Positions 3,769 through 45,174 of a DNA stretch of 64,000 nt are shown in pieces. The DNA is from an uncultured Candidatus Saccharibacteria bacterium (lineage in GTDB: Bacteria > Patescibacteriota > Minisyncoccia > UBA6257 > WO2-44-18). Position 1 is the stretch's first letter. Each line of letters starts with the position of its first letter. The notes below the pieces were generated by a model. It did no database searches and had not been told where the DNA came from. It saw nothing but the letters and a program-made list of their open reading frames with translations. The translations under genes and the position numbers were made by a program. The stretch is taken from the NCBI GenBank assembly GCA_964373675.1, contig CAYJVO010000002.1, forward strand, positions 3,054 through 67,053. Reading direction: 5' to 3'.

Positions 3769-5104
3769 CGATGCGCCGCCGCGCCTCGCCGTCCAGTTTT
3801 GGATTATCCAGATACAGGTTGATCAATTTCGGCAGATCTTCATCAGTTTTAGCCAAGCGCACTGCACCACTCTCGTAAATCGGTCGGTAATGGTTGAATT
3901 GGTATGCTAAGGCAAAACGATCAATATAGCCGATATTAATAATCGGTTTGTCAAAAATACAGGCCTCAATGGAAATGGTAGAAGCATAATTAATATTCAA
4001 ATCAGTATACTTTAAAGAATATTTCAAATTCAATAAATCGCCGTAATTCATTTCTACTTTCCCGTCGGTATATTTACCAGCCGGATCAATGCAAAGATCC
4101 GAAGTATTTAAAAATTCTTTGTAATGGTCGTAAACATCTAGCGGGTGGATACGAATGAATAAATTAACGTAAGGAATTATTTTATCTTCTCGCAAGCGGA
4201 TAAGATCGCGGATGTATTTTTTTTGAAATGGATACGCTTTAGTAACCGTGGTATGGAAAATTGTTTTATAAGCCGGATTTAGTCCTTTGGATTTTAAAAA
4301 CTCCTCCCTTGAGGGTATGTGATTCGAAATATCCGAATTCCATTCAAATAATTCTAAACCATCTTTGTTTTCGGATAATTCGGATGTATTAGAATTTTTT
4401 GAATCGCTTCTATCAAAGTAAGGATCAAAACGTGGCGTCCCGGAAACAAAAATCTTATCCGGCAGATAACGATGAATCTCAAGAACCTCTTTTTTAATAA
4501 TATCGTTCCAGGCAATCAAATAATCAGTTTTCCGGATATGTTTGGCATTGGTTGTCGGATTATCCCAAGAAGCGTTAATCGCAACAGTTGGAATCTTTAG
4601 CTTTTTAGCCGATAAAATAATTTCTGCCTCCCAGCTATCAAATCCCGGCGTTGCCGTAATCACCAAGGCTGGCTGATATTTCCCCGCTAATTCCAAAAAC
4701 CGCCGCGATCTTGGCAATAAGATTTCCTCCAGCCAAGTAAAAAAATCAGCGGTTAAAAACGGCGAAAAAGGCTTGCCGAAAAACCTCAAAATGCGCCGCT
4801 TCCAATTATTTTTATAATTCGGCCGCTTATACCAATGACGAATAGAGGCTAGATAATCAAACTCATTTACTAAGCTGATCCGTAAAAATTTAAAGAATTC
4901 CCAGAATTTCGGACTAGCCGCCCTCAGCTTTTCGTAAAAAACATTGGATGACTGCAGATAATTGCGCTGTTTCGCGATCTCGGCATCAATCATCGGAGTC
5001 AATACCACCGCACGGTATTTGCTTGAAAGGTATTCAATATATTTTGTCCGCAATAGGTCGCTGGTGGCAATATAATTGGGAAGCGCTAAAAAAACAGTTC
5101 GCAT
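3689..5104 (-). CDS. TagF-like CDP-glycerol glycerophosphotransferase family protein; carries an in-frame 89-bp repeat insertion
   Basis: 471 aa with a GTPRFD motif typical of the TagB/TagF family. An SD (GGAG) is supplied by the R1 repeat immediately upstream. Residues NSNTSELSENKDGLELFEWNSD are encoded by the MITE-like repeat at 4319-4407. Confidence 0.6.
   Translation of the reverse strand: MRTVFLALPNYIATSDLLRTKYIEYLSSKYRAVVLTPMIDAEIAKQRNYLQSSNVFYEKLRAASPKFWEFFKFLRISLVNEFDYLASIRHWYKRPNYKNNWKRRILRFFGKPFSPFLTADFFTWLEEILLPRSRRFLELAGKYQPALVITATPGFDSWEAEIILSAKKLKIPTVAINASWDNPTTNAKHIRKTDYLIAWNDIIKKEVLEIHRYLPDKIFVSGTPRFDPYFDRSDSKNSNTSELSENKDGLELFEWNSDISNHIPSREEFLKSKGLNPAYKTIFHTTVTKAYPFQKKYIRDLIRLREDKIIPYVNLFIRIHPLDVYDHYKEFLNTSDLCIDPAGKYTDGKVEMNYGDLLNLKYSLKYTDLNINYASTISIEACIFDKPIINIGYIDRFALAYQFNHYRPIYESGAVRLAKTDEDLPKLINLYLDNPKLDGEARRRIVASHVRYTDGLSYKRSVDFLAQITGV
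4319..4407. mobile_element. 89-bp MITE-like repeat, copy 1, in-frame inside the TagF-like CDS
   Basis: About 90% nucleotide identity to 10674-10762. The termini are inverted: GTGATTCGAAAT...TTTTTTGAATCGC. Confidence 0.65.
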
Positions 5105-5215: not shown

Positions 5216-6179
5216 CTAAATTCTTAATTGCCTTAACCACTAACTCGCTAATATAAACTTGAGTGCGTTCAGTGGCTTCCTCGGTAGAGCCGCCCAAATG
5301 CGGCAAAATGATCAAATTCTGATTTTTCCTGGCGTATTCCACCAACGGATTATTAATCAAATGGGCGCCGTCCGGGGATTCATCTGCCAACGTATCAATT
5401 CCCGCTCCGGCAATCCATCCTTTTTTTAAAGCCTCCAGCAATGCGACCTCATCAGTAATTTCCCCGCGGGCGGTGTTGATAAAAACGGCGGTTGGCTTCA
5501 TGAGTTTAAAATGTTCCTGTTTAAGCATTTTATAAGTAGAATCATTGTAAACAGCGTGAAGAGAAACAACATCGGATAATTTTAAAAGATTAGGCAGATC
5601 CGCCTTAACAGCTCCGTATTTTTTCATCTCGGCGGCGCCGACAAAAGGATCATAAGCCAACGCCCTCATTCCAAAGGCCGCGCTGTAGCCAGCCACCAGC
5701 CGTCCCAGCCGGCCAAAACCAATCAAACCGATAGTTTTTCCAGAAAGTTCCCGGCCGCTGTATTTAGCCCGATCCCATTCGCCTTTCTTAATCGCTTCAA
5801 ACCCCCAAGGAATTTTTCGCAACAGCGCCAAAATTAAAGCCATTGTTTCCTCAGCGGTAGAAGGAGTTTTGTGAAGAGCGGGAGCATCAGCTTTTATATT
5901 AACTATCTTAATGCCGCGCCGCCTGCACTCATCCAAATCCAAATACCTCAACTGGGTGGTGCGGGAACCGATCAGCTTTAATCTGCGCGCCCGATCCAAA
6001 ATAGGCTTATCAAACTTAACCTCCAAACCGGTCACTACCACATCGGCTTTTGACAAATTTCTAAAAAACTCCGCCCGCGATCCAAAATTAATCACCCGGC
6101 CGGATCGAGCAAGAATTTTTTTAGCTTTTGCGCTGAATTCTTTTTCCGCAATTAAAATATTAATTGATTTTTGAGCCAT
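5106..6179 (-). CDS. D-isomer-specific 2-hydroxyacid dehydrogenase (NAD-binding)
   Basis: GLIGFGRLGRLVAGY Rossmann motif and the typical family length. The last ~35 codons (RLHPAGLSSLRSRVRLGGVGRPGFSAKENKI) are read through the R1 repeat at 5106-5215, so the native C-terminus is probably earlier. Confidence 0.75.
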   Translation of the reverse strand: MAQKSINILIAEKEFSAKAKKILARSGRVINFGSRAEFFRNLSKADVVVTGLEVKFDKPILDRARRLKLIGSRTTQLRYLDLDECRRRGIKIVNIKADAPALHKTPSTAEETMALILALLRKIPWGFEAIKKGEWDRAKYSGRELSGKTIGLIGFGRLGRLVAGYSAAFGMRALAYDPFVGAAEMKKYGAVKADLPNLLKLSDVVSLHAVYNDSTYKMLKQEHFKLMKPTAVFINTARGEITDEVALLEALKKGWIAGAGIDTLADESPDGAHLINNPLVEYARKNQNLIILPHLGGSTEEATERTQVYISELVVKAIKNLENEAPRLHPAGLSSLRSRVRLGGVGRPGFSAKENKI

Positions 6180-6921: not shown

Positions 6922-7134
6922 CCCGCACATAACTAGGACTGCAACAGCCTCGCTTCTCTGAAAAAAACGCCATCATTCACAATTTTTTATCAGCAAATCT
7001 TCGTAGCAATAGCAGTTTAACGCGTTAAACGCTTTGACGCGTCAAAGCACTATCCCATGGGATAGTGCTAGGAAATAACCCCACACAGCTTTGTCTCAGG
7101 CATTGAAGAAAGCGGAGTCCTAGTTATGTGCGGG
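6922..7134. mobile_element. inverted-repeat cassette, family A copy 1 (TIR CCCGCACATAACTAGGACT / AGTCCTAGTTATGTGCGGG)
   Basis: 19-bp perfect terminal inverted repeats at 6922-6940 and 7116-7134. The interior contains the perfect palindromes GCTTTGACGCGTCAAAGC and AGCACTATCCCATGGGATAGTGCT. The interior plus right arm is repeated at 45014-45174. Confidence 0.6.
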
Positions 7135-7206
7135 GCAAGCCCCGAGAAAATTAATAACTATATTAATAATTCCTAAATTAACTTAATAACCACTCAATAA
7201 CTACCA

Positions 7207-7297
7207 AACTATAACCTGTGCTATAACCTGTGCTATAAACTACATTATAAACTGTGCTATAAACTATACTATGCTATAAACTATACTATAAACTATT
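7207..7297. repeat. iteron-like tandem repeats (CTATAAAC/CTATAACCTGTG units, about 7 copies)
   Basis: Direct reading of 7207-7297 shows the tandem units. The block lies in a 710-bp non-coding region. Confidence 0.7.
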
Positions 7298-7303
7298 AAT
7301 AAA

Positions 7304-7343
7304 TCTTTCCGTTATAACCGCCATGGCGGTTATAACGGAAAGA
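7304..7343. repeat. 40-bp perfect palindrome TCTTTCCGTTATAACCGCC-ATGG-CGGTTATAACGGAAAGA
   Basis: Exact reverse-complement symmetry centred on CCATGG. Confidence 0.85.
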
Positions 7344-7346
7344 TTT

Positions 7347-7404
7347 CCGAAAATCCGAAAAAAATGAATCTCCAAAAAAATGAACCTCCGAAAATGAAAC
7401 TCCC
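7347..7404. repeat. tandem repeats of about 15 nt (AAAAATGAAYCTCC), 3-4 copies
   Basis: Direct reading of 7347-7404 shows the repeated unit. Confidence 0.6.
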
Positions 7405-7424
7405 CGGGCTTACCCTCGGCCTCG

Positions 7425-7608
7425 CTGTAAGCGGAGCCGAGTCTGACTCGGCGGAGCCCCACGCCTTTGGCAGGGCAATGCTCGCCCGTGGCAGGGCGTG
7501 ACGCCCGGGATATTCTTTGAATGAAGCTCCACGGCCTTATCTAGCCTTCGTAGCCGAGTCAGACTCGGCGGAGTAGGCCGCCCGGGGTTTTCGGCGAAGG
7601 AGAATAAA
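7425..7608 (+). repeat. R1 structured repeat family (one partial and one full copy) with GCCGAGTCWGACTCGGC hairpin
   Basis: CTTCGTAGCCGAGTCAGACTCGGCGGAGTAGGCCGCCCGGGGTTTTCGGCGAAGGAGAATAAA at 7546-7608 also occurs at 5106-5170 (reverse complement) and 56953-57024. A partial copy lies at 7425-7460. The local context is GC-rich. Confidence 0.7.
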
Positions 7609-7611
7609 CAA

Positions 7612-7640
7612 TAAAAAAAGCCGCGGTTTGATCGCGGCTG
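7612..7640 (-). terminator. rho-independent terminator of the sqd1-like gene
   Basis: On the minus strand, CAGCCGCG-ATCAAAC-CGCGGCTG is followed by TTTTTTT directly after the TAA stop. Confidence 0.7.
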
Positions 7641-10890: not shown

Positions 10891-11595
10891 CTAGTGGCTA
10901 TTGGCTTTGTGGATTATAAATGAATTCCCATGCCAAGAATATTTGTGGAACTCGGTCGCGCTGAATTGCGGATATTTCTTCAACCACTCTCGAAATGCCA
11001 GCTGCTCGCCGGCATTCGGGTTGCCCCGGAAAAGAAACCAATCATCAAAAACTATAACCGTCCCAGCAACTATATAATCCTTAACAAATTCCAGCACCGG
11101 CACCGTTGACTCATATAAATCGCAATCTACCCAAATCACGGCCGCAGATTTCATCGGCAGCTTTTTCCTGGTGTCCGCGGTTAGCGTTTCGTTAAACCAG
11201 CCGGGAATAATTTCCACTTTGCTAAAATCAACTCCTGCCGCTTTAAGGTTATTCTTGAAAAGACCCAGCGAGGCAGAATATTCGCCTTTAGAAAACTGAG
11301 TAAATTCCGCATCCTTTCCCCGTATATCCGGCAGCCCCTCAAAAGAATCGAAGGCGTAAAACCGCATTTCTTGAAGATGCTTATTTTTCTGCGCCCACCG
11401 GCAAGCCGCGGCAAAAGTCCCGCCTCGGAAAACCCCGAACTCCAAATAATCTCCGGGTAGGCGAGCTTCCGCGACATAGTTCATAATTTTACGCAAAATT
11501 TCCTGCTTATCCCGCTCTTTTGGAGATAAACGTAAAAATTCCAGCCCCGGAAATCGCCTTTCTAACCAATGAAAAATTGCTTTAAAGACGGCCAT
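10891..11595 (-). CDS. TylF/MycF-family (macrocin O-methyltransferase-like) SAM methyltransferase
   Basis: LPGDYLEFGVFRGGTFAAACRW and VIWVDCDLYESTVPVLEFV match the TylF family. Confidence 0.7.
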   Translation of the reverse strand: MAVFKAIFHWLERRFPGLEFLRLSPKERDKQEILRKIMNYVAEARLPGDYLEFGVFRGGTFAAACRWAQKNKHLQEMRFYAFDSFEGLPDIRGKDAEFTQFSKGEYSASLGLFKNNLKAAGVDFSKVEIIPGWFNETLTADTRKKLPMKSAAVIWVDCDLYESTVPVLEFVKDYIVAGTVIVFDDWFLFRGNPNAGEQLAFREWLKKYPQFSATEFHKYSWHGNSFIIHKANSH

Positions 11596-11812
11596 GCTTT
11601 TTTAATAAATTTTTAATGTCGCCGACATTTTTCACCTTCGCCATTTCCTCAATAACAATCTTCAATCCGTATTCCCTTTCCAGCGTCTCCCAAAGCTTTA
11701 ATCCGTTAAACGAATCCCAGCTTGATAAATTATCCGGACTGGTTTGATCCGTAATTTTTTCCGGCTTAACTCCAAAAACTCCCGCTAAAATTTCTTCTAA
11801 AGATTTATGCAT
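11582..11812 (-). CDS. acyl carrier protein
   Basis: 76 aa with LSSWDSFNGLKLWETLEREYGL, a DS phosphopantetheine-attachment motif in a helix II-like context. Confidence 0.65.
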   Translation of the reverse strand: MHKSLEEILAGVFGVKPEKITDQTSPDNLSSWDSFNGLKLWETLEREYGLKIVIEEMAKVKNVGDIKNLLKKHGRL

Positions 11813-11927
11813 CCCGTTAGAAGCAGATCGCGATCTGCGATTGGCTGGATATTATTTTATATAAACAATTTTTCATTTTTATAAGATTTTGGCAGTCTAT
11901 AAAGCGATCGCGGCTTCTAACGGGATC
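11810..11927. mobile_element. inverted-repeat cassette, family B copy 1 (CATCCCGTTAGAAGC...GCTTCTAACGGGATC) with internal promoter facing the ACP gene
   Basis: Arms at 11810-11832 and 11905-11927 are inverted repeats. The terminal CAT of the left arm is the ACP start codon. On the minus strand the interior reads TTATAA-17 nt-TATAAA about 35 nt upstream of the ATG. Confidence 0.6.
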
Positions 11928-11939
11928 TTGTTTCAAGAT

Positions 11940-13613
11940 TTATGATTCGTAATCTGCTGTAGAAAGATCGCCCAGATCGGCGCCAGTCTCCTGGGCCCGA
12001 AGCACTCGGCGCATAATCTTTCCGCTGCGAGTCTTGGGTAATTTACTGACGAACTCAATCTCTCGCGGCACTTCGTGTACTGATAAATGTTTTTTCACAA
12101 ATTGCATCAGCTCACTCTTCAACGCCTCACCGGCTTCCGAACCAGACTTGAGCATCACGAACGCCTTAACGACATTGCCATATAATTCGTGGGGCTTTCC
12201 GATCACGCCGGCCTCCGCCACCGCCGGATGGGCCACCAACGTGCTTTCAATTTCAAAAGGACTAATCCGTTCAGCGGCACTCTTAATCATATCGTCTTCC
12301 CGACCCTGGAACCAAATATATCCCTCCCCATCCTTATAGGCCGTATCGCCAGAAATATACCACCCATCCTCAAAATAGGAATCAAACTTTTTTGGATTGT
12401 TCCAAATTGTTTTCATCAACCCTGGCCATGGAATTTTTACCGCTAAGCGACCAACCTCACCGGGCGGCAGCTCTTTGCCTTGATGATCAATAATCGCAGC
12501 CACGATACCCGGAATTGGTTTTCCCATTGATCCTTTCTTAATAGGCAAACAACGATAGTTATTAATAAGCTGGTGGCCATTCTCCGTCATATACCAAGAA
12601 TCATGTATTGATATTCCTAAACTATCCATCGTCCAGTCAATTAAGCTCGGGTTCAGTGGCTCGCCAGCGCTCACAATATGACGCAACGCCGGATGGTTTT
12701 CTTTATTTATCGGTGTGTTGTAGTAACGGAGCAGACGAAAGGCGGTCGGCGTGCTGTACCAAACGCTGATCCTCATTTTTTCCATGAACTCCGCCCAAGC
12801 CAACGACTGAAATTGGCCTTCATAAATATGCGCCGCCACCCCGCAAAGAAGCGGGGCAAAAAAATTGTAGACCATCCCCGTTACCCACCCAGGATCTCCG
12901 GTATTCCAATACCGATCTTCCGCATGAAGGTCCAATACATATTTAGCAGTGACCAGATGGCCAATCATGGCGCGATTAACCAGCAAGACACCCTTTGGCT
13001 TGGCCGTAGAGCCAGAAGTGTAATGAATAATAAACGGTGTTTCCAGATCGCCAAAGTACAATGCTCTTGGGTCGATTGACGTTTTTACGGCTTCCGAAAT
13101 TTTTTCTGGCGTTAAAATATTTTTCAATGCCGGCAGCTTATTCAAGGGAACATTAGGCCGAAGTTTTTCAGTAGTATAAATCCAAGTGGCTGAACAGTCT
13201 CCTAACCGATCCTCAATAGCGTCGGCGCCAAAAGCCTCAAAAAGCGGCACCGCGATCGCGCCGCACTTAATAGTGGCATGCAATACCGCCACGTATTCTA
13301 TGGAACGCGGCGCGTACAAAGCAAAACGATCACCGGGCCGCAAACCGTTTTGGTAAAAAAAGGACGCCAGCCGATCGGTTTTCTCTGCCAGTTCCTGAAA
13401 AGTAATCTGCTGGGCGACTCCATCAGCGCGCTGGGAAATAATCGCCGGCCGATCGCCGTTTCCTTTAACTGCCTGAACATTCGTAATTTCGTAAGCGTAA
13501 TTTACTTTGCCGTTGGCGTGCCAAGAAAATTCTTGGTGCCAATCCTGCCAAGAAAATCGTTTATATTCCGCTTCGTAATCCTTAAAATTAGGAGCTAGAT
13601 CCATCTTTTGCAT
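11940..13613 (-). CDS. AMP-dependent synthetase/ligase (acetyl/acetoacetyl-CoA synthetase-like)
   Basis: IIHYTSGSTAKPKGV is the AMP-binding motif, and the protein has an Acs-like N-terminus. The long ORF to 13700 overlaps the upstream gene, so start at the Met near 13613 (MQKMDLAPNF) is preferred. Confidence 0.7.
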   Translation of the reverse strand: MQKMDLAPNFKDYEAEYKRFSWQDWHQEFSWHANGKVNYAYEITNVQAVKGNGDRPAIISQRADGVAQQITFQELAEKTDRLASFFYQNGLRPGDRFALYAPRSIEYVAVLHATIKCGAIAVPLFEAFGADAIEDRLGDCSATWIYTTEKLRPNVPLNKLPALKNILTPEKISEAVKTSIDPRALYFGDLETPFIIHYTSGSTAKPKGVLLVNRAMIGHLVTAKYVLDLHAEDRYWNTGDPGWVTGMVYNFFAPLLCGVAAHIYEGQFQSLAWAEFMEKMRISVWYSTPTAFRLLRYYNTPINKENHPALRHIVSAGEPLNPSLIDWTMDSLGISIHDSWYMTENGHQLINNYRCLPIKKGSMGKPIPGIVAAIIDHQGKELPPGEVGRLAVKIPWPGLMKTIWNNPKKFDSYFEDGWYISGDTAYKDGEGYIWFQGREDDMIKSAAERISPFEIESTLVAHPAVAEAGVIGKPHELYGNVVKAFVMLKSGSEAGEALKSELMQFVKKHLSVHEVPREIEFVSKLPKTRSGKIMRRVLRAQETGADLGDLSTADYES

Positions 13614-13659
13614 ATGTGCATATTGTAACGATTTTTTTGTATTTACGCAACAAAAAAGC

Positions 13660-14616
13660 CTACTCTTGAGTAGGCTCATACGAATACTTAATGATGTCAT
13701 AGTGAAGCGCCTTCATTAAGGAATAGAGGGTTTCGTTCACGGGCACACTAAGGCCATGCTTTCTTGCCAATTGGACGACTTTTCCCACAAAGCTTTCGTA
13801 CTCTAATTTTCGTTTCCGCAATCGTACATCTCTTTGGGTAGAGCTGACATATTCATTAAACGACTTCCCTGAATCTAAAACATAATTTACGTCATCCGGT
13901 GTTAAAACCACTCCTTCGGCTCGGCCAACCGCCACTACCTCCGCCATCAGCTTATCCAGCATTACCGCTGACTCGGAACATTCATGAAAACGATTAAAGG
14001 GAAGGTTGCAAACTGCCGTTGGAATATTGATGGTACAATTCCATAAAAATTTTCTCCACATCGCTCTTCGGATATCCGGCGGATTAAATACTGGTATATT
14101 GGCTTTTCTAAATGTGTCATTAATGGCTGAGACGCGTCTTGAAACTTCGCCATTCCATTCGCTAAAATAAATTTCCCCTTTACTGCCATGGTCAACTGTT
14201 CCTTCAGGATGGTTAACGGAAACGCCTACTAAAGTAAAGCCGGGCAAAACCTTTTCCTGGCCAATCACTGCTCCAATTCTCTCTGGATTGTCAATGCCAT
14301 TTTGAATCGTCAGAACCAATGTATCCTTCCCAACCACTGACTTAATCGCCTGCGCGGCTTCATCGGTGTCATGGGACTTAACTGTAAATAAAATAAGGTC
14401 GGCTTCTGGCAATCCATCAAGGGTGTCTCGGAAATTTGCCGGACTAATGTCAAAATTGCCAGTACGGCTGCGTACCCGAATCCCATGCCTGCGGAAATGA
14501 ACCAAATTCTGTCCGCGGGTAATAAAAGTTACATCGTATCCTGCCCGAACTAATAAGGCACCGAAATAAGCTCCGACTGCTCCGGCGCCCATTATATAAA
14601 TCCTGTTCATCAACAC
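13660..14616 (-). CDS. 2-dehydropantoate 2-reductase (PanE/ApbA)-family NAD(P) oxidoreductase
   Basis: MNRIYIMGAGAVGAYFGALLVRAGYDV is an N-terminal Rossmann motif. The 318-aa length matches the ApbA N- plus C-domain. Confidence 0.65.
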   Translation of the reverse strand: MLMNRIYIMGAGAVGAYFGALLVRAGYDVTFITRGQNLVHFRRHGIRVRSRTGNFDISPANFRDTLDGLPEADLILFTVKSHDTDEAAQAIKSVVGKDTLVLTIQNGIDNPERIGAVIGQEKVLPGFTLVGVSVNHPEGTVDHGSKGEIYFSEWNGEVSRRVSAINDTFRKANIPVFNPPDIRRAMWRKFLWNCTINIPTAVCNLPFNRFHECSESAVMLDKLMAEVVAVGRAEGVVLTPDDVNYVLDSGKSFNEYVSSTQRDVRLRKRKLEYESFVGKVVQLARKHGLSVPVNETLYSLMKALHYDIIKYSYEPTQE

Positions 14617-19139: not shown

Positions 19140-20239
19140 GAATTTAATGATAGCATTTTATTGTAAATAACGTTGTATAGCTGGGCAGTTTTCCCCCAAC
19201 TCATTGAACGCGCAAAAGAAATCGAATTTTTCGACATATCAAACCTCAAATCGGGATTAGATAATATTTTCTCCATAGCGGCTGAAGCGCTCTTTGGGTT
19301 CTGCGGACTTACCAAAATGCCGTTCTTCCCGTCCCTAACCGCGTCTTCCGCGCTAGTTTCTTTAGTAGTAATCACCGGCAATCCGGCGGCCGCCGCCTCC
19401 AAGAAAACCAGTCCAAAACCTTCAATGTCTTTGTTAACATCCTGCGGCATTAATATAAAAAGCTCGGCGTTTTTATAAACCGATATCAATTCTTCCTCCG
19501 ATAAATTTTCTAAAAAAACAACCCGATCTTGATACTTGATACTTGATACTTGCCGCTGAAGCGCTTCGTACTCCGGCCCTTTCCCGACAATCACGTATTT
19601 CAAACCTGGAAACTTCTTGGCTACTTCCGCGAATGCCGCGATTGAATATTCGTATCCTTTTCGTTGCTTTAATGTTCCAACGCTTAATATATAAGGTTTC
19701 AATTTCTGGACTTCCGATGTCCCAATATTGACGTCAATGGTTTGGACATCGGAAGTCCCTGATATTGATTCGAATTTTGTAAAATCAACGCCGTGATTAA
19801 TAACAGAGATTTCCAAATCCGGCAAAAATTTCTGGATTTCTCTTTTGGTATTATTACTAACCGCTATTACCCTAAACGCTCTTTTATACGCCCATTTCAT
19901 AATCGGCCGTCTCCACCAGCTGTAAAACGGCTTAACCGCCCCGGTGCCAATGCCGGTTATAATTAGTTTTTTTCTTGATCCTAAAGATACTATGGCCGCA
20001 ATCACGCCATATGGCCAGCCATCCAAGGCATGAATAATATCGCAATATTTAAAGGCTCGACGAATACAGAAATAGAAAAAAGGTAATTGCCAACATTTTT
20101 TCGGCAAACCGCTATCATGAGTTAAAACTTCATATTGAAAATCTGGAACAATCTTTTCAAGAGCGCTGATTAGCGAATGATAAAACCGCCCGGCGCCAGT
20201 TTTATCGCTTAAATCATGATTAAGATAACAAATTTTCAT
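19136..20239 (-). CDS. GT4-family glycosyltransferase
   Basis: YVIVGKGPEYEAL...FGLVFLEAAAAGLPVITT is the GT4 C-domain signature. A heptamer-repeat-encoded loop (QVSSIKYQ) is present. Confidence 0.8.
   Translation of the reverse strand: MKICYLNHDLSDKTGAGRFYHSLISALEKIVPDFQYEVLTHDSGLPKKCWQLPFFYFCIRRAFKYCDIIHALDGWPYGVIAAIVSLGSRKKLIITGIGTGAVKPFYSWWRRPIMKWAYKRAFRVIAVSNNTKREIQKFLPDLEISVINHGVDFTKFESISGTSDVQTIDVNIGTSEVQKLKPYILSVGTLKQRKGYEYSIAAFAEVAKKFPGLKYVIVGKGPEYEALQRQVSSIKYQDRVVFLENLSEEELISVYKNAELFILMPQDVNKDIEGFGLVFLEAAAAGLPVITTKETSAEDAVRDGKNGILVSPQNPKSASAAMEKILSNPDLRFDMSKNSISFARSMSWGKTAQLYNVIYNKMLSLNS
19528..19552. repeat. heptamer tandem array (CTTGATA x3.5) inside GT4 CDS
   Basis: CTTGATACTTGATACTTGATACTTG. 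It is in-frame and encodes QVSSIKYQ. Confidence 0.8.
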
Positions 20240-20518
20240 CCCGTTAGAGACAGGGAGCGTTTTAATCGATTTTTGATATATCGCTTTCCCATGCCTGATT
20301 TTAAATATAGTTCCCTCGACTTTGCGTCTTGTTCATTTTCGCATGCTTCAAAATATATTAATTCCCAAGGTCCACGATTTTTAGTGAAGCCATGTAAATC
20401 ACTGTTGCGTTATTTAAAACGCTTCCGTAAATCTGCCGTATATCCTGTATACCATTGTCTATTCTTTTTGCTTTGTAAAACATAAACATAATAAAACATT
20501 ATTGTCTCTAACGGGATC
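20237..20518. mobile_element. inverted-repeat cassette, family B copy 2 (CATCCCGTTAGAGACAG ... TTGTCTCTAACGGGATC)
   Basis: Arms at 20237-20253 and 20502-20518. The left-arm CAT is the start codon of the GT4 gene. The right arm abuts the stop codon of the next methyltransferase gene. The interior is 248 bp and AT-rich. Confidence 0.6.
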
Positions 20519-21252: not shown

Positions 21253-21933
21253 TTACTTCTTTCTTAACACATAATAAATATAGCGGCCAAACCATTGATT
21301 TGCCGGAAGGATTTTTTTAAGCAGTTTATTCAAAAATAAAAATTTAAATTCTGATTTTGAATATTCGGTTGTCACTAAATCAAAATACTTCAAAAAAGTC
21401 TTTTTAAAAATTGCGCGGGTAAAAAATGTAATGTGATTATCGCCTTCCAAAAAATGATAAATATCGCCGCGCCAGAAAAAGAGCAGCCGATTCAAAATAT
21501 GAAATGGGTTTGGAGTGGAAATAATAAATATCCCGCCCGATTTTAAAACCCGAAACACTTCCCGTCCGAAAAAATAAGGATTCTCTAGGTGCTCAACCAG
21601 TTGGGAAGCTATTACTCCGTCAAAATGACTATCCGGCCACGGCAATTTATCCAAGCATAAATCAGCTTTAGAAAATTCGAATTTCTTGGCCGGCTCAGAA
21701 CGATAATCATCAATGTCCGCGCCAGTCAAATTCTGATAACCGGCTTCCGAAAACTGCGAAAGCAGGGAGCCATCGGCTGATCCGCAGTCTAAAATCGGCC
21801 GCGAACGATCGGGCAAATATTTTTCCGCTAAACCTAAAATCTTGCCGCTGCGAATATCCCAACTGGAACGCTGCTGCAGATGCAATAGCTCATTTTGTCT
21901 ATTTTTTATTTCATCTGGATCAAGGTATTTCAT
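21253..21933 (-). CDS. class I SAM-dependent methyltransferase (paralog of 20517-21242)
   Basis: ILDCGSADGSLL is motif I. The conserved C-terminal block (LENP...GG...I.S, NHIT...AIFKKT.LKYF.LV..EY) is shared with the neighbour. The longest ORF starts MCGM... inside the cassette arm, so the Met at 21933 is preferred. Confidence 0.7.
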   Translation of the reverse strand: MKYLDPDEIKNRQNELLHLQQRSSWDIRSGKILGLAEKYLPDRSRPILDCGSADGSLLSQFSEAGYQNLTGADIDDYRSEPAKKFEFSKADLCLDKLPWPDSHFDGVIASQLVEHLENPYFFGREVFRVLKSGGIFIISTPNPFHILNRLLFFWRGDIYHFLEGDNHITFFTRAIFKKTFLKYFDLVTTEYSKSEFKFLFLNKLLKKILPANQWFGRYIYYVLRKK

Positions 21934-22042
21934 CCCGCACATAACTAAGACTGCAGCAACGCTGCAATCCTATTTTAACTTTTTAACTTTTTTCACCATA
22001 ATATATCTAATTTTTAAAATAGTCTTAGTTATGTATGGGATG
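21931..22042. mobile_element. inverted-repeat cassette, family A copy 2 (CATCCCGCACATAACTAAGACT ... AGTCTTAGTTATGTATGGGATG)
   Basis: 22-bp terminal inverted repeats with a 68-bp AT-rich interior that has promoter-like hexamers. Both termini present an outward ATG. The left one is the MTase start codon. Confidence 0.65.
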
Positions 22043-24765: not shown

Positions 24766-25836
24766 TTATACGAAAACTTTTATTAGTTTTTCTATGAGGG
24801 TGGGTAAATTATGCCTCTCAATGATTAAGGTCCTCAGGCGTTTACCTATTTGTTTACGCTCTTCTTCGTTCAATATTATTAAATTTAAAATTTTATGCGC
24901 TAAATCAATCGGGTCCTGCGACTTAAACATTAATAAACGATCAAGATCGTGCGGGAAAATTTCTTTAAACGTCTCATTAGTTACTAATACCGGCAATTCG
25001 CAAGCCATCGCCTCTAAAGTAGTCTTATCAAAACTGCCAGTGCGCGTCAGGTTTACAAAAAGGTCGTGTTCATTGTAGATAATAACAGTCTGATAATTGG
25101 GGACCTTCGGACGAAATTCCACTAATGCCGGGAGATTCAATTCTTGTATTAAATTTTTAATTTTTTCATAATATTCTTTTTCATCCGGTTTGCCCGGCGT
25201 CGGCTCGCCAACGATCGTCAAACTAACATCTGACTTTGACTGTTGAATTATTGCCAGAGCGCGCAATAAAGTCTCTAAATCCTTTACCGGCGCAATCCTC
25301 CCTAAAAAAAGAACTTTGAACTTTGAACTTTGAACTTTGAACTTGAGCGGCTCAAACCGCTCTGTGTCTATTCCCTGCTGCAAAATCGTTAATTTTTTAC
25401 TTCTCAGCGGATAAGCCAGCCGAGTTGAGGTAACGATTTGATCTGCGAGCCAAGCGGCAAGCCGTAGTTTTAAATTAGCAAGATAATGCGCATACCACAG
25501 AATTATTTTTTTACCCCACAACTTCCAGAAAACTCCGCCTAAAATAATATATTCTGGATTCATATGCACAAAAACAGCGTCGTAATCATTCCTCAATCGC
25601 CAAATATATTTATAAAATCTCAAAATATAAATTAACCGTCGCATCCAATTCCTAATTCCTTCTTTACCCAACGAATACACCTTTACACTCTCCGGTAATT
25701 CCGCTCGGCCACGATAAAGACAAATCACCGAGATTTGTTTAACTCGCTGTGCCAATTCCTCAATCCAACGGTGATAGATGCCTAAAACATCATCATCTTT
25801 GTCTACTTTTTGGGTGATGAATAACAATCTTGCCAT
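24766..25836 (-). CDS. GT4-family glycosyltransferase
   Basis: FLGRIAPVKDLETL...NLPALVEFRPKV. A heptamer-encoded loop (KFKVQSSKFK) is present. Confidence 0.75.
   Translation of the reverse strand: MARLLFITQKVDKDDDVLGIYHRWIEELAQRVKQISVICLYRGRAELPESVKVYSLGKEGIRNWMRRLIYILRFYKYIWRLRNDYDAVFVHMNPEYIILGGVFWKLWGKKIILWYAHYLANLKLRLAAWLADQIVTSTRLAYPLRSKKLTILQQGIDTERFEPLKFKVQSSKFKVLFLGRIAPVKDLETLLRALAIIQQSKSDVSLTIVGEPTPGKPDEKEYYEKIKNLIQELNLPALVEFRPKVPNYQTVIIYNEHDLFVNLTRTGSFDKTTLEAMACELPVLVTNETFKEIFPHDLDRLLMFKSQDPIDLAHKILNLIILNEEERKQIGKRLRTLIIERHNLPTLIEKLIKVFV
25311..25346. repeat. heptamer tandem array (GAACTTT x5) inside GT4 CDS
   Basis: GAACTTTGAACTTTGAACTTTGAACTTTGAACTTGA. It is in-frame. Confidence 0.85.
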
Positions 25837-26975
25837 GATTTTTTAATTGCATCTAAATACTGCTGCTTAGTTGGCCAATTTTTTAAAAGGTTATTCTGCC
25901 CATCAATAACTCTCCTTCGTTCCGCGGGATTGGCTATTAACTCTTCTAAAACCTCGATGAGCCGCTTTTTGTCGCCTACCGGCACCACTCGGCCAATAGC
26001 CGCACCGACATCGGTCATAACCACCGGCAGACCGGCCGCCGCCGCCTCAACCGCCGCCAGACCGTAACCTTCGTAGTTGGAGGTCAATAAAAATAAATCC
26101 GCGGTCTTGTAATAAGAAATCAGATCATCCGTCCAGGGCTCAATAATTGCGTTATTTTGCAATTTTAAATTTTCAATTTTAAATTTTAAATTTTGGCGTT
26201 CCGGACCATCGCCAACGATCAATAACAAAGGATTTCCGACGCTTGATGCCTGACGCTTGACGCGATTAAACGCCTCGATTGCTAATCCGATATTTTTCTC
26301 TCGCGACAATCGAGAGGCCACGAGAATAATAAAATTGTGGCTCGGATATTTTCTGTGAAGATCGATCTTGATTGGAGATTTTTTTATTTTTTTAACGTCA
26401 ACAAAAATTGGCCGCACTTCAATTTTGGACTCGGGATAATCAATTTGCGAAATAACGGATTTTTTAATCCGATCACTAACTACCCGCAGGCGGTCGGCCT
26501 TTTTAATTAAAAACTTCGCCAGCAAAACCCGGATTTTATTCTTTAATGACTCCTTCGCGAAATACGGGCTTAAAAAATCCGTATGCGCTTGAAGCTCTAA
26601 CGGAATTTTGAATTTCTTTTTCAGAGGATAGCCCACTAAGCCGGTCTCAAAAGGATCCTGCGCCGTTACTAGATAATCCGAATGCTTCAAGCTTTTATCC
26701 GAATTATCCGAACTCAAAATATATTTGGCGATTTTGTAGGCATCCCAAAAATAAAAAGGCTTGAGGCGCGTATTGGTGGAATAAATCCAAGCGTTCGCAG
26801 TTATTGCTTTTTTGTTCGGGGCATTCGGATAGCGGTTCGTATTATTCGGATTATCTTTTGTGTAAACTATGATGTGCAGCTCCTCGACAAGTTGAGCGTA
26901 CTCAATCATCCTCTGCCGAACAGCCGAGTTTTCTTTAAAAATATTTGAATCTGCTGATAACATTAAAAGCCGCAT
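25803..26975 (-). CDS. GT4-family glycosyltransferase
   Basis: LLLIVGDGPERQNL...GYGLAAVEAAAAGLPVVMTDVGA is the GT4 signature. Confidence 0.75.
   Translation of the reverse strand: MRLLMLSADSNIFKENSAVRQRMIEYAQLVEELHIIVYTKDNPNNTNRYPNAPNKKAITANAWIYSTNTRLKPFYFWDAYKIAKYILSSDNSDKSLKHSDYLVTAQDPFETGLVGYPLKKKFKIPLELQAHTDFLSPYFAKESLKNKIRVLLAKFLIKKADRLRVVSDRIKKSVISQIDYPESKIEVRPIFVDVKKIKKSPIKIDLHRKYPSHNFIILVASRLSREKNIGLAIEAFNRVKRQASSVGNPLLLIVGDGPERQNLKFKIENLKLQNNAIIEPWTDDLISYYKTADLFLLTSNYEGYGLAAVEAAAAGLPVVMTDVGAAIGRVVPVGDKKRLIEVLEELIANPAERRRVIDGQNNLLKNWPTKQQYLDAIKKSWQDCYSSPKK
26161..26194. repeat. heptamer tandem array (AATTTTA x5) inside GT4 CDS
   Basis: AATTTTAAATTTTCAATTTTAAATTTTAAATTTTG. It encodes LKFKIENLKLQN. 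Confidence 0.85.
26240..26264. repeat. degenerate heptamer array (GCTTGAT/GCCTGAC/GCTTGAC) inside GT4 CDS
   Basis: GCTTGATGCCTGACGCTTGACGCG. Confidence 0.6.
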
Positions 26976-42888: not shown

Positions 42889-43371
42889 ATGCAATTATTG
42901 TTTAACAATTCCCTTGGCGCCAAACTAACCCCTGATGATGTCATCGGCGAAATAATCAAATTCATGAACGCTGATCCTCATCGCTGTTATAAAGTCATCA
43001 TCGGAACTGATTCGGAGCGTTCCGCTGACAACACCGCCGATTTTGTAACGGCAATTGTCATTCACCGCTTAGGAAATGGCGGGCGATACTTTTGGCGACG
43101 GATTGAACCAAAAACCAAATATCACACCTTAAGGGGCCGCATCACTGGAGAAGTTTTGATGTCTTTGGACATTGCCCGGGAATTACTTCAGGCTATGAAA
43201 AATTACCAAGTTCCGAAATTTGATTTTGAAATTCATGTGGATGTTGGGGAAAACGGCGCGACTAAAACAATGATTCAGGAACTAGTCGGCATGATTCGGG
43301 CTAATAATTTTGAAGCCAAAACCAAACCCGAAAGCTACGCCGCCAGCAAAGTCGCGGACCGCCATATTTAG
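42889..43371 (+). CDS. RNase H-like fold protein (YkuK/DUF458-like)
   Basis: 160 aa. The KVIIGTDSE strand with a catalytic-type Asp resembles the DUF458 family. Assignment is from memory of the family motif. Confidence 0.35.
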   Translation: MQLLFNNSLGAKLTPDDVIGEIIKFMNADPHRCYKVIIGTDSERSADNTADFVTAIVIHRLGNGGRYFWRRIEPKTKYHTLRGRITGEVLMSLDIARELLQAMKNYQVPKFDFEIHVDVGENGATKTMIQELVGMIRANNFEAKTKPESYAASKVADRHI

Positions 43372-43398
43372 TTTCAAGTTTCAGGTGTCAGGTATCAA
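43369..43398. repeat. heptamer array (reverse orientation; AGTTTCAGGTGTCAGGTATCAAG) 5' of four-helix-bundle gene
   Basis: Reverse complement is CTTGATACCTGACACCTGAAACT. Confidence 0.75.
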
Positions 43399-43402
43399 GT
43401 AA

Positions 43403-43759
43403 ATGGAAAAGGGTTATAAAAAATTGATGGCCTACCGCGAAGGTCACAAATTAGTTCTGCAAACTTATCTTGCAACTAGTAAGTTTCCTAAGTCAGAATT
43501 ATTCGGACTTGTTTCTCAAATGCGTAGGGCGGCGGTGTCTGTGGTGGCAAACATCTTAGAAGGCCAGGCCAGAATAAGTAAAAAGGAATTTAAAAATTTC
43601 ATCTCTATCACTAATGGATCCCTTGTTGAATTGGAATATTATCTTGAACTATCACGAGAATTGAATTACATTAACAGGAACGATTATGAGGAAGTAGAAA
43701 AGCAAAGAGCTCTTACTGGCTCTTTATTGGGTGGATTACTTCGTTACCTTAAATCTTAA
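43403..43759 (+). CDS. four-helix-bundle protein (23S rRNA intervening-sequence protein family; Avd-like)
   Basis: 118 aa. YREGHKLVLQTY...LVSQMRRAAVSVVANILEG...NGSLVELEYYLELS matches the TIGR02436-type four-helix-bundle family. Confidence 0.7.
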   Translation: MEKGYKKLMAYREGHKLVLQTYLATSKFPKSELFGLVSQMRRAAVSVVANILEGQARISKKEFKNFISITNGSLVELEYYLELSRELNYINRNDYEEVEKQRALTGSLLGGLLRYLKS

Positions 43760-43830
43760 CTTGACACCTGACACCTGATACCTGATACCTGACACATAAC
43801 ACCTGACACCTGATACATGATACATGACAC
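43759..43830. repeat. heptamer array, about 10 units (CTTGACA CCTGACA CCTGATA ... CATGACA), 3' of four-helix-bundle gene and overlapping start of next ORF
   Basis: Direct reading of 43759-43830. This is the longest array in the window, in the opposite orientation to 43369-43398. Confidence 0.85.
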
Positions 43831-44937: not shown

Positions 44938-45013
44938 GATTTTCTCCTGTAAAAAGCCGGCTGGTATAATATCACATCTACAAAATAATGCAAGCCCCCA
45001 CGCCTAATAAGCG

Positions 45014-45174
45014 CTTCCACAATTTTTTATCAGCAAATCTTCGTAGCAATAGCAGTTTAACGCGTTAAACGCTTTGACGCGTCAAAGCACTATCCCATGG
45101 AATAGTGTTAGGAAATAACCCCACACAGCTTTGTCTCGGGCATTAAAGAAAACAAAGTCTTAGTTATGTGCGGG
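45014..45174. mobile_element. partial copy of family A cassette (interior plus right arm AGTCTTAGTTATGTGCGGG)
   Basis: About 95% identical to 6975-7134. It is flanked by a 23-bp direct repeat GCAAGCCCCCACGCCTAATAAGC (44989-45011 and 45175-45197) and followed by a 16-bp-stem hairpin. Confidence 0.6.

Follow-up and report, generated by a model that had tools for sequence, protein, structure and literature searches.

A cassette on the start codon of an ACP gene is probably a non-autonomous copy of a small palindromic mobile element common in Patescibacteria

The stretch of DNA analysed here (64,000 nucleotides; hereafter the window) carries a glycan cluster in which a short cassette bounded by inverted repeats ends exactly on the start codon of an ACP gene. 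Is such a cassette a switch, a mobile element or a chance palindrome? A preliminary description had favoured an invertible promoter (inverton) or a promoter-delivering MITE. On the evidence below, the cassette, here called A1, is probably a non-autonomous deletion derivative of a small palindromic mobile element common in Patescibacteria, and neither a switch nor a chance palindrome. The ClpB encoded in the window is 73–76% identical to ClpB of named CPR MAGs, and the host is Paceibacterota-like. The features at the locus are as follows:

11812–11925, minus strand: A1 from tip to tip, 114 bp, an ORF-less MITE-like copy and the cassette under study; on the coding (minus) strand it reads 5'-T CCCGTTAGAAGC CGCGATCGC ... 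GATCGCGATCT GCTTCTAACGGG A-3'
11812–11824, minus strand: gene-proximal terminal inverted repeat, GCTTCTAACGGG plus tip A on the coding strand
11913–11925, minus strand: gene-distal terminal inverted repeat, tip T plus CCCGTTAGAAGC on the coding strand
11822–11837, unstranded: perfect 16-nt palindrome GCAGATCGCGATCTGC, adjoining the proximal repeat
11817–11876, minus strand: internal short ORF, MKNCLYKIISSQSQIAICF followed by a stop, with its ATG 64 nt and its TAA 7 nt upstream of the ACP ATG
11856–11884, minus strand: promoter-like string, TTATAA (11879–11884), 17 nt, TATAAA (11856–11861)
11582–11812, minus strand: ACP, 76 aa, PP-binding, the host gene downstream of A1
11940–13700, minus strand: acetate-CoA-ligase-like AMP-binding enzyme, the host gene upstream of A1
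11800–11809, unstranded: first copy of a 10-bp direct repeat, CATAAATCTT on the coding strand
11935–11944, unstranded: second copy, bracketing A1 asymmetrically with the copy at 11800–11809

The arms of A1 consist of ATCCCGTTAGAAGC at 11811–11824 and its exact reverse complement at 11913–11926 (14 nt, 100% complementary, 88 nt apart), and the RNA fold adds 7 bp across a 4-nt bulge, for ~21 bp in all. The coordinates of the 'near-perfect 23-nt arms' first described therefore hold and 14 nt are indeed perfect, but the wording was slightly generous, as the remainder pairs solely across the bulge, where the 16-nt palindrome meets 11904–11911 (GCGATCGC). This asymmetry of the interior, with the palindrome on one side and GCGATCGC on the other, is a mark of the subfamily and of its orientation. 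Allowing up to two mismatches, the 14-mer occurs four times in the window against 0.36 expected; the two occurrences outside A1 are the arms of a second cassette at 20238–20517. A1 is small and has no protein-coding capacity, its sole ORF being 19 codons long and closed by a TAA (11817–11819) within the proximal repeat; this ORF is probably a remnant of the 3' end of the nuclease gene described below. In a search of Rfam 15, A1 matched no family at gathering or E-value thresholds (the best match in 11700–12050 scored 15 bits, with E = 8.7, where the threshold is 55 bits), and the window yielded only two tRNAs. The cyanobacterial HIP1 repeat was considered for GCGATCGC in the right arm and rejected, the sequence not being enriched (two copies against 1.45 expected).

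Comparison with relatives indicates that A1 is inserted DNA. Two related loci (L001 and L237) have the same ApbA–ligase–ACP order as the window and an empty ligase–ACP junction, and because the ligase stop and ACP start are separated by 2 nt in L001 and 4 nt in L237 against 127 nt in the window, we take the difference to be an insertion, which would have split a tightly coupled ligase–ACP gene pair of the glycan cluster. The true start of the ligase is probably near 13613, and its C terminus (...GDLSTADYES) is without the EMNP tail found in its 37 closest homologues. On the other side, CAT at 11810–11812 is the reverse complement of the ACP ATG, the last A of A1 on the coding strand is the A of that ATG, and in an alignment with L001 this ATG falls on the start codon of the orthologous ACP gene. 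The flanks ...GAATCATAA and ATGCATAAA would be joined in the empty allele. At A1 itself, a clean 4-bp duplication is missing and the 10-bp direct repeat stands displaced in its place (p about 0.0075), which leaves no clean record of how this copy inserted; the target duplication was probably blurred by later rearrangement.

Copies of the same element are widespread. The family termini read YCCCGTTAGA...TCTAACGGGR, and the pattern CCCGTTAGAAN{70,100}TTCTAACGGG matches at least 120 stretches in GTDB representative species genomes (chance expectation estimated at about 30), most of them from Patescibacteria and others from Omnitrophota, Planctomycetota and Desulfobacterota; 103 metagenome loci of the family were also collected, and the window holds two A-type and four B-type copies. 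The terminal inverted repeat comprises 12 nt, CCCGTTAGA(A/G)NN, plus a complementary Y/R tip. Tips are complementary in 95–97% of copies, and repeat positions 11 and 12 are variable yet match between arms in 92% and 90% of copies. A U before the element and a G at its end were also seen, a combination suggestive of a self-splicing intron. With the element taken as Y-CCCG...CGGG-R, an exact 4-bp flanking duplication is present in 60% of gene-adjacent, 56% of other and 63% of nuclease-encoding copies; the target consensus is R, the duplicated 4 bp T-N-W-A, and then Y. Near-identical copies occur at different genes of one genome (L118, L014 and L115), and arms near-identical over ~20–25 nt are found in unrelated genomes beside unrelated genes. 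The 'MITE' part of the earlier proposal is thus borne out, A1 being an insertion and a member of a large family with conserved terminal inverted repeats and target duplications, and the same features uphold the suggestion that one machinery is shared by the cassettes.

Family members fall into two main size classes, ORF-less copies of 90–130 bp and copies of 260–290 bp with a GIY-YIG nuclease ORF, but samples were drawn with patterns fixing the termini and the size range, so these classes and their proportions are biased. Innermost repeat pairs in 1.57 Mb of loci spanned 20–60, 60–140 and 260–300 bp, with two odd ones at about 190 and 250 bp. No pair exceeded 300 bp in these loci, and the search for an IS-sized parent found none, with only about 14 solo ends seen. 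In one subfamily, RTAG is followed by a 7-bp hairpin with compensatory changes.

The position of A1 on a start codon is a property of the family. In 80 of 147 copies (~55%), an ORF of at least 50 codons begins at the base after ...CGGG, against 2.4% at random positions, and host start codons are ~20 times commoner at the element edge than expected by chance. The rebuilt ATG or GTG consists of the terminal purine of the element and the TG of the duplication, so that the start codon is, as had been proposed for the ACP gene, built from the element terminus (its last base plus the duplicated TG), and this is true family-wide. Survival bias together with a target consensus that fits ATGAAY could account for the association. 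In-frame read-through and a conserved leader peptide were considered and rejected, since element lengths show no 3-nt periodicity.

The longer form is represented in the window by the second cassette:

20239–20516, minus strand: A2 from tip to tip, 278 bp, a nuclease-encoding member of the A1 family
20236–20499, minus strand: GIY-YIG nuclease pseudo-ORF in A2, 87 codons

A2 lies between a methyltransferase gene, whose TGA extends onto the distal tip, and a gene for a GT4 glycosyltransferase, whose ATG starts on the proximal tip; the reconstructed pre-insertion junction, CGATGAAAA, is a stop/start ATGA overlap. The pseudo-ORF, the sole nuclease copy in the 64-kb window, has a single in-frame TAA (20410–20412) in place of a Gln codon, and its terminal TGA overlaps the host ATG. 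A2 aligns over its full length with two relatives (L122 and L065), and the ORFs of these (E = 4e-16 and 6e-14) and the repaired A2 ORF (7e-15) all match Pfam GIY-YIG (PF01541). The catalytic ORF is thus present in A2 and its ~280-bp relatives and lost in A1.

The ~280-bp form has one ORF, which encodes an 84–90-aa UPF0213 (YhbQ/YazA/Slx1-type) GIY-YIG nuclease and is carried by 48 of 107 elements of 257–287 bp; among the fetched elements, the nuclease was the only ORF between family termini and no transposase was found. The nuclease evolves under purifying selection (median dN/dS 0.11). In most cases the stop of its ORF is either a TAA within the terminal repeat, with 4 nt between it and the host ATG (in L123, too, 4 nt separate the nuclease stop from the host gene), or a TGA that shares bases with that ATG; the last two codons of the ORF and its stop lie in the terminal repeat. 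Forms of 92 aa begin MNPVRD..., a captured host ATG followed by the terminal repeat read in frame. The closest solved structures are the UPF0213 proteins 1zg2 (BH0048, E = 4e-8) and 1ywl (EF2693), and similarity to NCBIfam group I intron endonucleases is weak (E = 6e-5, below cut-off). An identical-protein look-up of one nuclease (P0143) returned one locus across many samples and no multiple insertion sites. These genes are currently annotated 'excinuclease ABC subunit C'. To our knowledge, bacterial UPF0213 proteins have no assigned function and have never been described as mobile-element genes. [quoted passage not shown] By analogy with Slx1, the structure selectivity suggests that the element nuclease may prefer branched or hairpin DNA such as its own palindrome.

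Four further copies in the window belong to a second family, B:

6922–7134, minus strand: B1, 213 bp, with a 19-nt perfect repeat CCCGCACATAACTAGGACT, ~37 nt upstream of a likely cytidylyltransferase start
21933–22040, minus strand: B2, of the second family, with repeat CCCGCACATAACTAAGACT and YCCCG...CGGGR tips as in the family of A1
62124–62200, minus strand: B3, a 5'-truncated B-family copy whose proximal arm, ...GTTATGTGTGGG, abuts ATGAAAGAG
45010–45174, minus strand: B4, B1-like, of which one terminus can be recognised; a 23-nt direct repeat GCTTATTAGGCGTGGGGGCTTGC lies on either side

The proximal tip of B2 is the A of a methyltransferase ATG (21931–21933), its distal arm contains the stop of the upstream gene, and ATGAAAGAG at B3 (62121–62123) is the likely true start of the gene ending at 61002. 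The terminal ATCCCG that had been thought common to the cassettes is shared by those at 20238–20517 and 21933–22040, and at 6922–7134 CCCG alone is shared. The B-family repeat CCCGCACATAACTARGACT had no matches in the scan of GTDB genomes, which shows as well that the window does not come from a GTDB representative, and none in the fetched loci.

How a host gene might remain active behind such an insertion is suggested by short ORFs inside the elements. An ORF with an internal ATG that ends at −7, at an ATGA overlap or in frame was present in 73% of the A1 subfamily, against 28% after shuffling (200 shuffles, maximum 50%) and 37% with the element flipped, and in 54% against 23% of all 80 oriented copies; because the copies are related, the shuffle controls overstate independence. 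In A1 itself this ORF runs from −64 to −7. These frequencies suggest translational coupling of an element ORF to the host gene. Ribosomes would translate the nuclease ORF or, in short copies, its remnant (in A1, the 19-codon ORF 11876–11817), melt the stem hiding the host AUG, terminate 4 nt upstream and re-initiate, and the host gene would stay expressed and the insertion be tolerated.

Several other explanations of A1 were weighed against that of a mobile element copy. A1 resembles fimS and the Bacteroides CPS promoters in having short inverted repeats around an AT-rich segment directly upstream of surface-glycan genes, and Correia elements are reported to invert (PMC10969869), as would be expected if a site-specific recombinase flipped the segment between the 14-nt repeats to switch ACP/glycan modification. 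We nevertheless regard the inverton first proposed as very improbable and do not retain it. The nearby tyrosine or serine recombinase that it implied was not found by Pfam in 25 window ORFs lying between 0.7 and 55 kb, the ten nearest to the cassette included, although the enzyme could be encoded elsewhere. Across different genomes and independent assemblies, the arms and asymmetric interior of the A1 subfamily have one orientation relative to the adjacent gene in 24–30 of 24–30 copies, with none of the orientation polymorphism of a switch, and flipping would destroy the ORF of the protein-coding members, whose nuclease ORFs are co-oriented with the host gene 22:0. Target duplications, found across the family, and empty sites, found in two relatives, belong to insertions and not to a resident switch. 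Orientation could also have been kept if the AT-rich interior (median 65% A+T) transcribed ACP and the downstream glycan genes, and the TTATAA-17-TATAAA string does point at ACP, as the preliminary description noted; Correia elements and Neisseria REP2 repeats are precedents for promoter-supplying repeats (PMC10969869; PMC3184786). A cassette kept as a promoter is nonetheless rather improbable: the string is weak and overlaps the start of the conserved short ORF, with its −10-like hexamer inside it, and a sigma-70 consensus scan of 11500–12100 gave 0 sites, although such scans are weak tests as CPR promoters are not characterised. A1 scores 8/12 in either direction, and among the 80 oriented copies promoter-like matches faced the gene in 23 and away in 13, which is not significant, and 4 against 4 at a stricter cut. 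The string of the proposed outward promoter is present; the promoter itself is only putative.

A regulatory RNA hairpin that evolved locally in the ligase–ACP spacer, serving as a processing site, attenuator or stabiliser, would explain why the 146-nt region folds into a very stable stem that sequesters the AUG (−40 kcal/mol against −21.0 ± 3.3 in shuffles; z = −5.8), and long perfect stems are typical RNase III substrates. Such a hairpin may be a real side-effect of the insertion; as the origin of A1 it is hardly credible in view of the near-identical arms beside unrelated genes in unrelated genomes, the target duplications, the empty sites and the lack of an Rfam match. A coincidental palindrome, to which we give the same minimal weight, is excluded by the count of the 14-mer in the window, where 0 of 100 shuffles reached four. 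Two other candidates were rejected. Integron attC sites are imperfect palindromes downstream of a cassette ORF that open with the core site R'' (RYYYAAC) and close with R' (GTTRRRY), but here the order is reversed on either strand, with GTTAGAA first and TTCTAAC last. A group I or other self-splicing intron does not fit elements of 92–120 nt, which are too small, have no Rfam match and can have C/G tips.

Given that A1 is probably a mobile element copy, what moves it? We infer that the element is mobilised by its own nuclease, which may act on a hairpin or cruciform formed by the repeats. It is possible, although we hold this only tentatively, that the ~280-bp elements are autonomous and form a new class of minimal prokaryotic mobile element that parasitises start codons, with an 84-aa Slx1/YhbQ-type GIY-YIG nuclease, whose coding sequence runs into the terminal repeat of the element, as sole gene and the 90–130-bp cassettes as non-autonomous derivatives. 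Such an element would borrow host initiation signals and be translated first, the ribosome being handed back by termination and re-initiation 4 nt upstream of the rebuilt start codon. However, GIY-YIG enzymes are hydrolytic nucleases, and we know of none that performs strand transfer or makes repeat-bounded insertions with target duplications, so an unseen transposase acting in trans is a live alternative. Terminal inverted repeats with a fixed-length duplication are the classical footprint of DDE transposition, and the 4-bp duplications fit it; the short and 280-bp copies would then be classical MITEs, moved by a DDE-type transposase that recognises the CCCGTTAGA termini, with the GIY-YIG gene as passenger or addiction-type hitch-hiker. 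The B family is in keeping with this, sharing only the YCCCG tips, the duplication and the start-codon behaviour and being without a nuclease remnant. We still think it unlikely: the 1.57 Mb of loci, a small and biased sample, held no repeat pair above 300 bp, and the overlap of the nuclease ORF with the terminal repeat, the strong purifying selection on it (dN/dS 0.11) and its strict orientation (22:0) argue that it is an integral gene rather than cargo.

The family is apparently a mobile element not previously described: full-text literature searches, including with the terminal sequences themselves, found no description of it, and a 2024 MITE review and a survey of 183,232 genomes make no mention of start codons, GIY-YIG or CPR. 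It is alike to REP/REPIN sequences in its ~25-nt conserved arms, variable spacer and long hairpin, and by analogy with RAYT and REPINs one small nuclease gene may serve many short copies. REPINs are not known to duplicate their target, and the gene that their repeats flank encodes an HUH Y1 transposase (RAYT), whereas the A1 family has a 4-bp duplication and is associated with a GIY-YIG gene in place of an HUH one. Free-standing GIY-YIG homing endonuclease genes (T4 Seg proteins; I-TevI-type intron endonucleases) are, as is the ~280-bp form, small selfish GIY-YIG-only genes between host genes. Homing endonucleases have added DNA-binding domains and spread by double-strand-break repair into one cognate site, and they are not known to be bounded by terminal inverted repeats, to duplicate their target or to leave derivatives without the ORF; the ~280-bp form, in contrast, encodes a bare 84-aa UPF0213-type catalytic domain, and its family has terminal repeats, duplications and many unrelated insertion sites.

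Prokaryotic MITEs (Correia/NEMIS in Neisseria, Chunjie in Geobacter and Nezha in cyanobacteria) are ~100–230 bp, A+T-rich and non-coding, and Chunjie was reported within an operon that it did not disturb (PMC3184786; PMC10969869). They share with the A1 family terminal inverted repeats, flanking direct repeats, many copies, empty sites, stable hairpins and positions beside or between genes. The duplication differs (4 bp, T-N-W-A, in the A1 family; TA in Correia; 9 bp in Chunjie), and unlike MITEs the A1 family is registered precisely on start codons rebuilt from the element tip, spans several phyla and has as its sole ORF-bearing relative an element encoding a GIY-YIG nuclease, not a transposase. 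Neisseria REP2 and Borrelia IR-A/B are dispersed repeats that directly precede ORFs and provide them with expression signals and an ATG initiation codon (PMC3184786). Both REP2 and the A1 family supply the start of the downstream gene, but REP2 has a promoter and ribosome-binding site and is without terminal inverted repeats or target duplication, whereas no promoter or Shine-Dalgarno site is evident in the A1 family and its ATG is composed partly of the element and partly of the duplicated target. Rickettsia palindromic elements (RPEs) are palindromic selfish DNA whose insertion in compact genomes is compatible with host expression (PMC10969869). RPEs and the A1 family have in common their persistence as such DNA in such genomes, but RPEs lie in frame inside ORFs and are translated in the host protein, whereas the A1 family lies at the first codon and leaves the host protein unchanged.

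CPR genomes are tiny and gene-dense, and almost any insertion should be harmful; the A1 family appears to avoid harm by landing at the first codon, rebuilding the start codon and keeping an ORF open up to the host AUG. Should the element be moved by its 84-aa GIY-YIG protein, few known self-contained mobile elements would be as small, and it would represent a new enzymatic route to repeat-bounded insertions and would give UPF0213 (YhbQ/YazA), found across bacteria, a first functional context; were the ~280-bp elements autonomous, a nuclease type would be added to the known transposase chemistries. For CPR genomes more generally, copies of the family lead to upstream start codons that are false, to gene starts called in the wrong place, to N-terminal extensions such as MNPVRD... 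and to breaks in assemblies. In the glycan cluster of the window, the irregular intergenic spacers would be parasitic insertions and not phase-variation switches.

Cassette A1 fills the gap between a ligase gene and an ACP gene, in a window that has a G+C content of 43%. The ClpB encoded in the window shares 73-76% identity with its counterparts in Paceibacterota, Harrisonbacteria and Parcubacteria MAGs, which places the host among the CPR/Patescibacteria. The near-perfect inverted repeat of the preliminary description was confirmed at 11810-11927: as RNA the region folds into a stem of 14 perfect base pairs, a 4-nt bulge and 7 more base pairs (-40 kcal/mol, z = -5.8), and its repeat motif occurs four times in the window with ≤2 mismatches, versus 0.36 expected. 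A window-wide repeat search and reading of the sequence identified sibling elements, A2 and the four copies of family B.

11582-11812, minus strand: ACP gene, a 76-aa PP-binding ORF whose ATG overlaps the left end of A1
11811-11824 and 11913-11926: perfect 14-nt inverted repeat of A1, ATCCCGTTAGAAGC, with 88 nt between the arms
11876-11817: internal ORF of A1, 19 codons, with its stop at -7 relative to the ACP ATG
11940-11975: 3' end of the gene upstream of A1, an acetate-CoA-ligase-like AMP-binding enzyme
20239-20516: A2, with repeat CCCGTTAGAGACA
6922-7134, 21933-22040, 62124-about 62200 and 45010-45174: family B (B1, B2, B3 and B4), with repeat CCCGCACATAACTARGACT

In A2, B2 and B3, the ...CGGG end runs straight into the ATG of the downstream gene. 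The TGA of the gene upstream of A2 ends on the distal tip of the element (far from the downstream gene), and before insertion the junction can be reconstructed as CGATGAAAA, a stop/start overlap of the common ATGA type. Family B carries the same YCCCG...CGGGR tips as the A family around a different interior with nested palindromes, and no exact copy of its repeat turned up in GTDB representative genomes or the fetched loci. B1 lies in a 710-bp repeat-rich intergenic region (6931-7640) that also holds a 12/24-nt tandem array (7208-7296), a perfect 46-bp palindrome (7301-7346), 16-nt repeats (7354-7394) and a perfect 17-nt inverted repeat (7436-7452 / 7553-7569).

Comparison with related loci indicates that A1 is inserted DNA. 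The ligase-ACP gap is 127 nt in the window, 2 nt (TAA CC ATG) in L001, whose ligase is 71% identical to the window ligase, and 4 nt in L237, which has the same ApbA-ligase-ACP gene order. Because the ACP N-termini line up residue for residue (MKPPFEQILA versus MHKSLEEILA), the ATG fused to the A1 repeat represents the ancestral ACP start position. The flanks of A1 are irregular, with no 4-bp duplication around it. The two copies of a 10-bp direct repeat, CATAAATCTT, are found 9 nt beyond the distal tip and 3 nt into ACP (p about 0.0075 by shuffling), 16 of 23 positions are alike between the 23 nt upstream of A1 and the first 23 nt of ACP, and a 23-nt flanking repeat at B4 resembles this situation. 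In addition, the window ligase ends in ...GDLSTADYES and has lost the ...ST[LM]D[AV]EMNP tail that, followed by 0-15 residues, is conserved in its 37 closest homologues. The replaced tail looks like part of the A1 proximal arm (GCAGATTACGA versus GCAGATCGCGA), which points to either the remains of an earlier element or a deletion, and we take the odd flanks and lost tail together as post-insertion rearrangement.

Outside the window, L001 carries two related cassettes, and a scan of one genome per GTDB species with the pattern CCCGTTAGAAN{70,100}TTCTAACGGG matched at least 120 stretches, compared with about 30 estimated for chance. Those listed came mostly from CPR MAGs, among them Saccharibacteria and Paceibacterota/Parcubacteria; Omnitrophota, Planctomycetota and Desulfobacterota contributed some. 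Family statistics were based on 143-147 elements from the scanned loci and the window. The bases before CCCG and after CGGG are complementary in 95-97% of these copies, and the element is therefore Y-CCCG...CGGG-R. With this definition the 4 nt flanking each side agree in 60% of the copies next to a gene and in 56% of the rest, versus 0-15% in other registers, except for a nested 2-nt core and palindromic AT flanks. The target consensus is R|T-N-W-A|Y. The terminal repeat is 12 nt long; positions 11 and 12 vary, but the two arms agree at them in 92% and 90% of copies, respectively. Near-identical copies occur at different genes within one genome (L118, L014 and L115), and tandem arrays share a regenerated target (L023, L105, L092 and L122). 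Such features characterise a transposable element. The tandem pile-ups on a single start codon (L023 7674-7895, L105 894-1053, L092 434-642 and L122 3882-4164), with nothing but the regenerated 6-nt target between copies (for example, ...CGGGATTCATCCCG...), argue for a real target preference beyond survival bias alone. Minimal versions of ~30 nt, consisting of two terminal repeats with few bases between (for example, ACCCCGTTAGAAGTTACTTTTCTAACGGGGT), were observed at L060 about 6010-6041, L066 1263-1290 and L095 about 3950-3979; these could be extreme deletion derivatives or excision footprints.

The proposal of a start codon made from the element terminus holds for A1 and across the family. 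An ORF of ≥50 codons begins at the very base after ...CGGG in 80 of 147 copies, compared to 2.4% of random positions in the same loci. The typical gene-oriented junction is ...ATGAA|T-CCCGTTAGAA...TTCTAACGGG-A|TGAAA..., in which the downstream start codon comprises the terminal purine of the element plus a duplicated TG. Duplications at start codons are TGAA, TGAG, TGGA or similar, and several elements show ATA, ATT or ACG where the upstream copy of the ATG has decayed.

Some relatives encode a nuclease. A2 aligns end to end at 69% identity with L122:3889-4164 (Parcubacteria RAAC4_OD1_1) and L065:6920-7198 (Omnitrophota), which contain intact ORFs of 84 and 89 aa matching Pfam GIY-YIG (E = 4e-16 and 6e-14); in A2 this ORF is interrupted by one in-frame TAA (E = 7e-15 once repaired). 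The closest solved structures are the UPF0213 proteins BH0048 (1zg2) and EF2693 (1ywl), of the YhbQ/YazA family, which is represented in eukaryotes by Slx1, a structure-selective nuclease (PMC7017083). CPR genomes contain hundreds of relatives with 80-89% identity, labelled 'GIY-YIG nuclease family protein' or 'excinuclease ABC subunit C'. The 92-aa versions begin MNPVRD or MDPVRD, representing a captured host ATG and the terminal repeat in frame. Gene callers stretch the ORF to the upstream host ATG copy (P0139, P0183, P0133, P0167, P0223 and P0226), so that N-termini such as MNPVRDYL, MDPVRDHL and MVPLEIH are translated terminal repeat; many of these copies bear the excinuclease annotation. 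In the L123 element, ATGGAT|CCCGTTAGAGATTACTTATG...TCCTATCTCTAACGGG|ATGGAA, the nuclease TAA lies within the terminal repeat and the host gene starts 4 nt on.

A metagenome scan for A1-like termini at larger spacing (CCCGTTAGAAGN{235,265}CTTCTAACGGG) yielded 107 elements in 103 loci: 48 with a GIY-YIG ORF, 51 tandem or nested short copies and 8 others. An exact 4-bp duplication flanks 30 of the 48 nuclease-bearing elements, all 22 that sit on a host start codon are co-oriented with the host gene, the nuclease stops at -7 in 21/30 ATG-started ORFs, and median dN/dS is 0.11. Innermost repeat pairs in the 1.57 Mb of fetched loci measured 20-60 bp (24 seen), 60-140 bp or 260-300 bp; two exceptions measured about 190 and 250 bp, and none exceeded 300 bp. 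Hence no protein other than the nuclease was seen between these termini. In L226 the proximal arm (AAAACGCTCCCTGCTTCTAACGGG, coding ...KRSLLLTG and a stop) resembles that of A2 and agrees with the A1 proximal arm (GATCGCGATCTGCTTCTAACGGG) at 16 of the last 20 nt, which connects the short copies with the nuclease gene at its 3' end.

The MITE-type identity suggested earlier is thus supported by the insertion relative to L001 and L237, the duplications seen in the wider family, the terminal repeats and the dispersed copies, and we regard A1 with high confidence as a non-autonomous copy of a CCCG-tipped mobile family. Its subfamily pairs the proximal arm GATCGCGATCTGCTTCTAACGGG with the distal arm CCCGTTAGAAGCCGCGATCGC, and nearly identical arms are present in MAGs labelled Paceibacteria, Levyibacteriota, Kerfeldbacteria and other taxa. 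A1 behaves as MITEs do and shares most of their characters, but a transposase-encoding parent is missing. Tentatively, the GIY-YIG nuclease may be what mobilises the family. Free-standing homing endonuclease genes have the same nuclease type, although their spread, unlike that of these elements, is free of repeats and duplications. GIY-YIG enzymes are hydrolases, and we know of none that makes insertions bounded by repeats and flanked by duplications; a trans-acting transposase of conventional type is therefore a serious rival to the nuclease, if a rather improbable one. A1 matched no Rfam family and did not pass the tests for attC or REPIN/RAYT identity. Full-text literature of incomplete coverage, searched also with the terminal sequences, yielded no description of the family; it included a 2024 review of MITEs and a survey of them across 183,232 genomes.

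Orientation bears on the suggested inverton, which we consider very unlikely: A1 does not pass the tests for one, and in its subfamily every one of the 24-30 gene-adjacent copies turns the bulged arm towards the gene. Since either orientation would rebuild the ATG, this bias implies selection on the transcript or strand-specific insertion. Better candidates for switching in this locus than the inverted-repeat cassettes are tandem repeats of 7- or 8-nt units (92-100% matching) within glycosyltransferase and neighbouring ORFs of the glycan clusters, whose unit lengths, not divisible by three, suit slipped-strand phase variation.

19528-19552: CTTGATA x3.6
25311-25344: GAACTTT x4.9
26161-26194: AATTTTA x4.9
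28704-28733: TGAGTTGA x3.8

Elsewhere in the window, a 118-aa ORF (43403-43759) is bracketed by a 7-nt array (TGACACC x9.9) and its inverted copy (43371-43403 and 43756-43830). An imperfect 49-nt inverted repeat (26671-26856; 73% complementary, 88-nt spacer), inside or adjoining ORF 25803-26975, is unrelated in sequence to the CCCG-tipped families.

As for expression, the TTATAA-17-TATAAA of the proposed outward promoter is present in A1 but fails a sigma-70 consensus scan, leaving the promoter unproven. Of the frames entering TTCTAACGGGATGA, one stops at TAA (-7), one at a TGA overlapping the ATG, and the third is in frame with the host gene.

Copies with an internal ATG ORF reaching the terminus in one of these three ways
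A1 subfamily (30 copies): observed 73%; interior shuffled 28% (maximum 50% in 200 shuffles); flipped 37%
All oriented copies (80): observed 54%; interior shuffled 23% (maximum 36%); flipped 33%

We consider the chances evenly balanced that translation is coupled through the remnant ORF. Ribosomes would load in the unstructured A/U-rich loop of A1, or arrive from upstream, and translate the remnant ORF, opening the stem that hides the ACP AUG; they would then terminate 4 nt before this AUG and re-initiate. As a side-effect, the long stem could plausibly be cleaved by RNase III. Like Neisseria REP2 and Borrelia IR repeats, these elements supply the start of the downstream gene, and like Rickettsia RPEs they persist through compatibility with host expression. 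At A1, re-initiation would return the ligase-ACP pair to its pre-insertion coupling. A1 is an ordinary-looking member; it is the family itself that appears unusual and undescribed.
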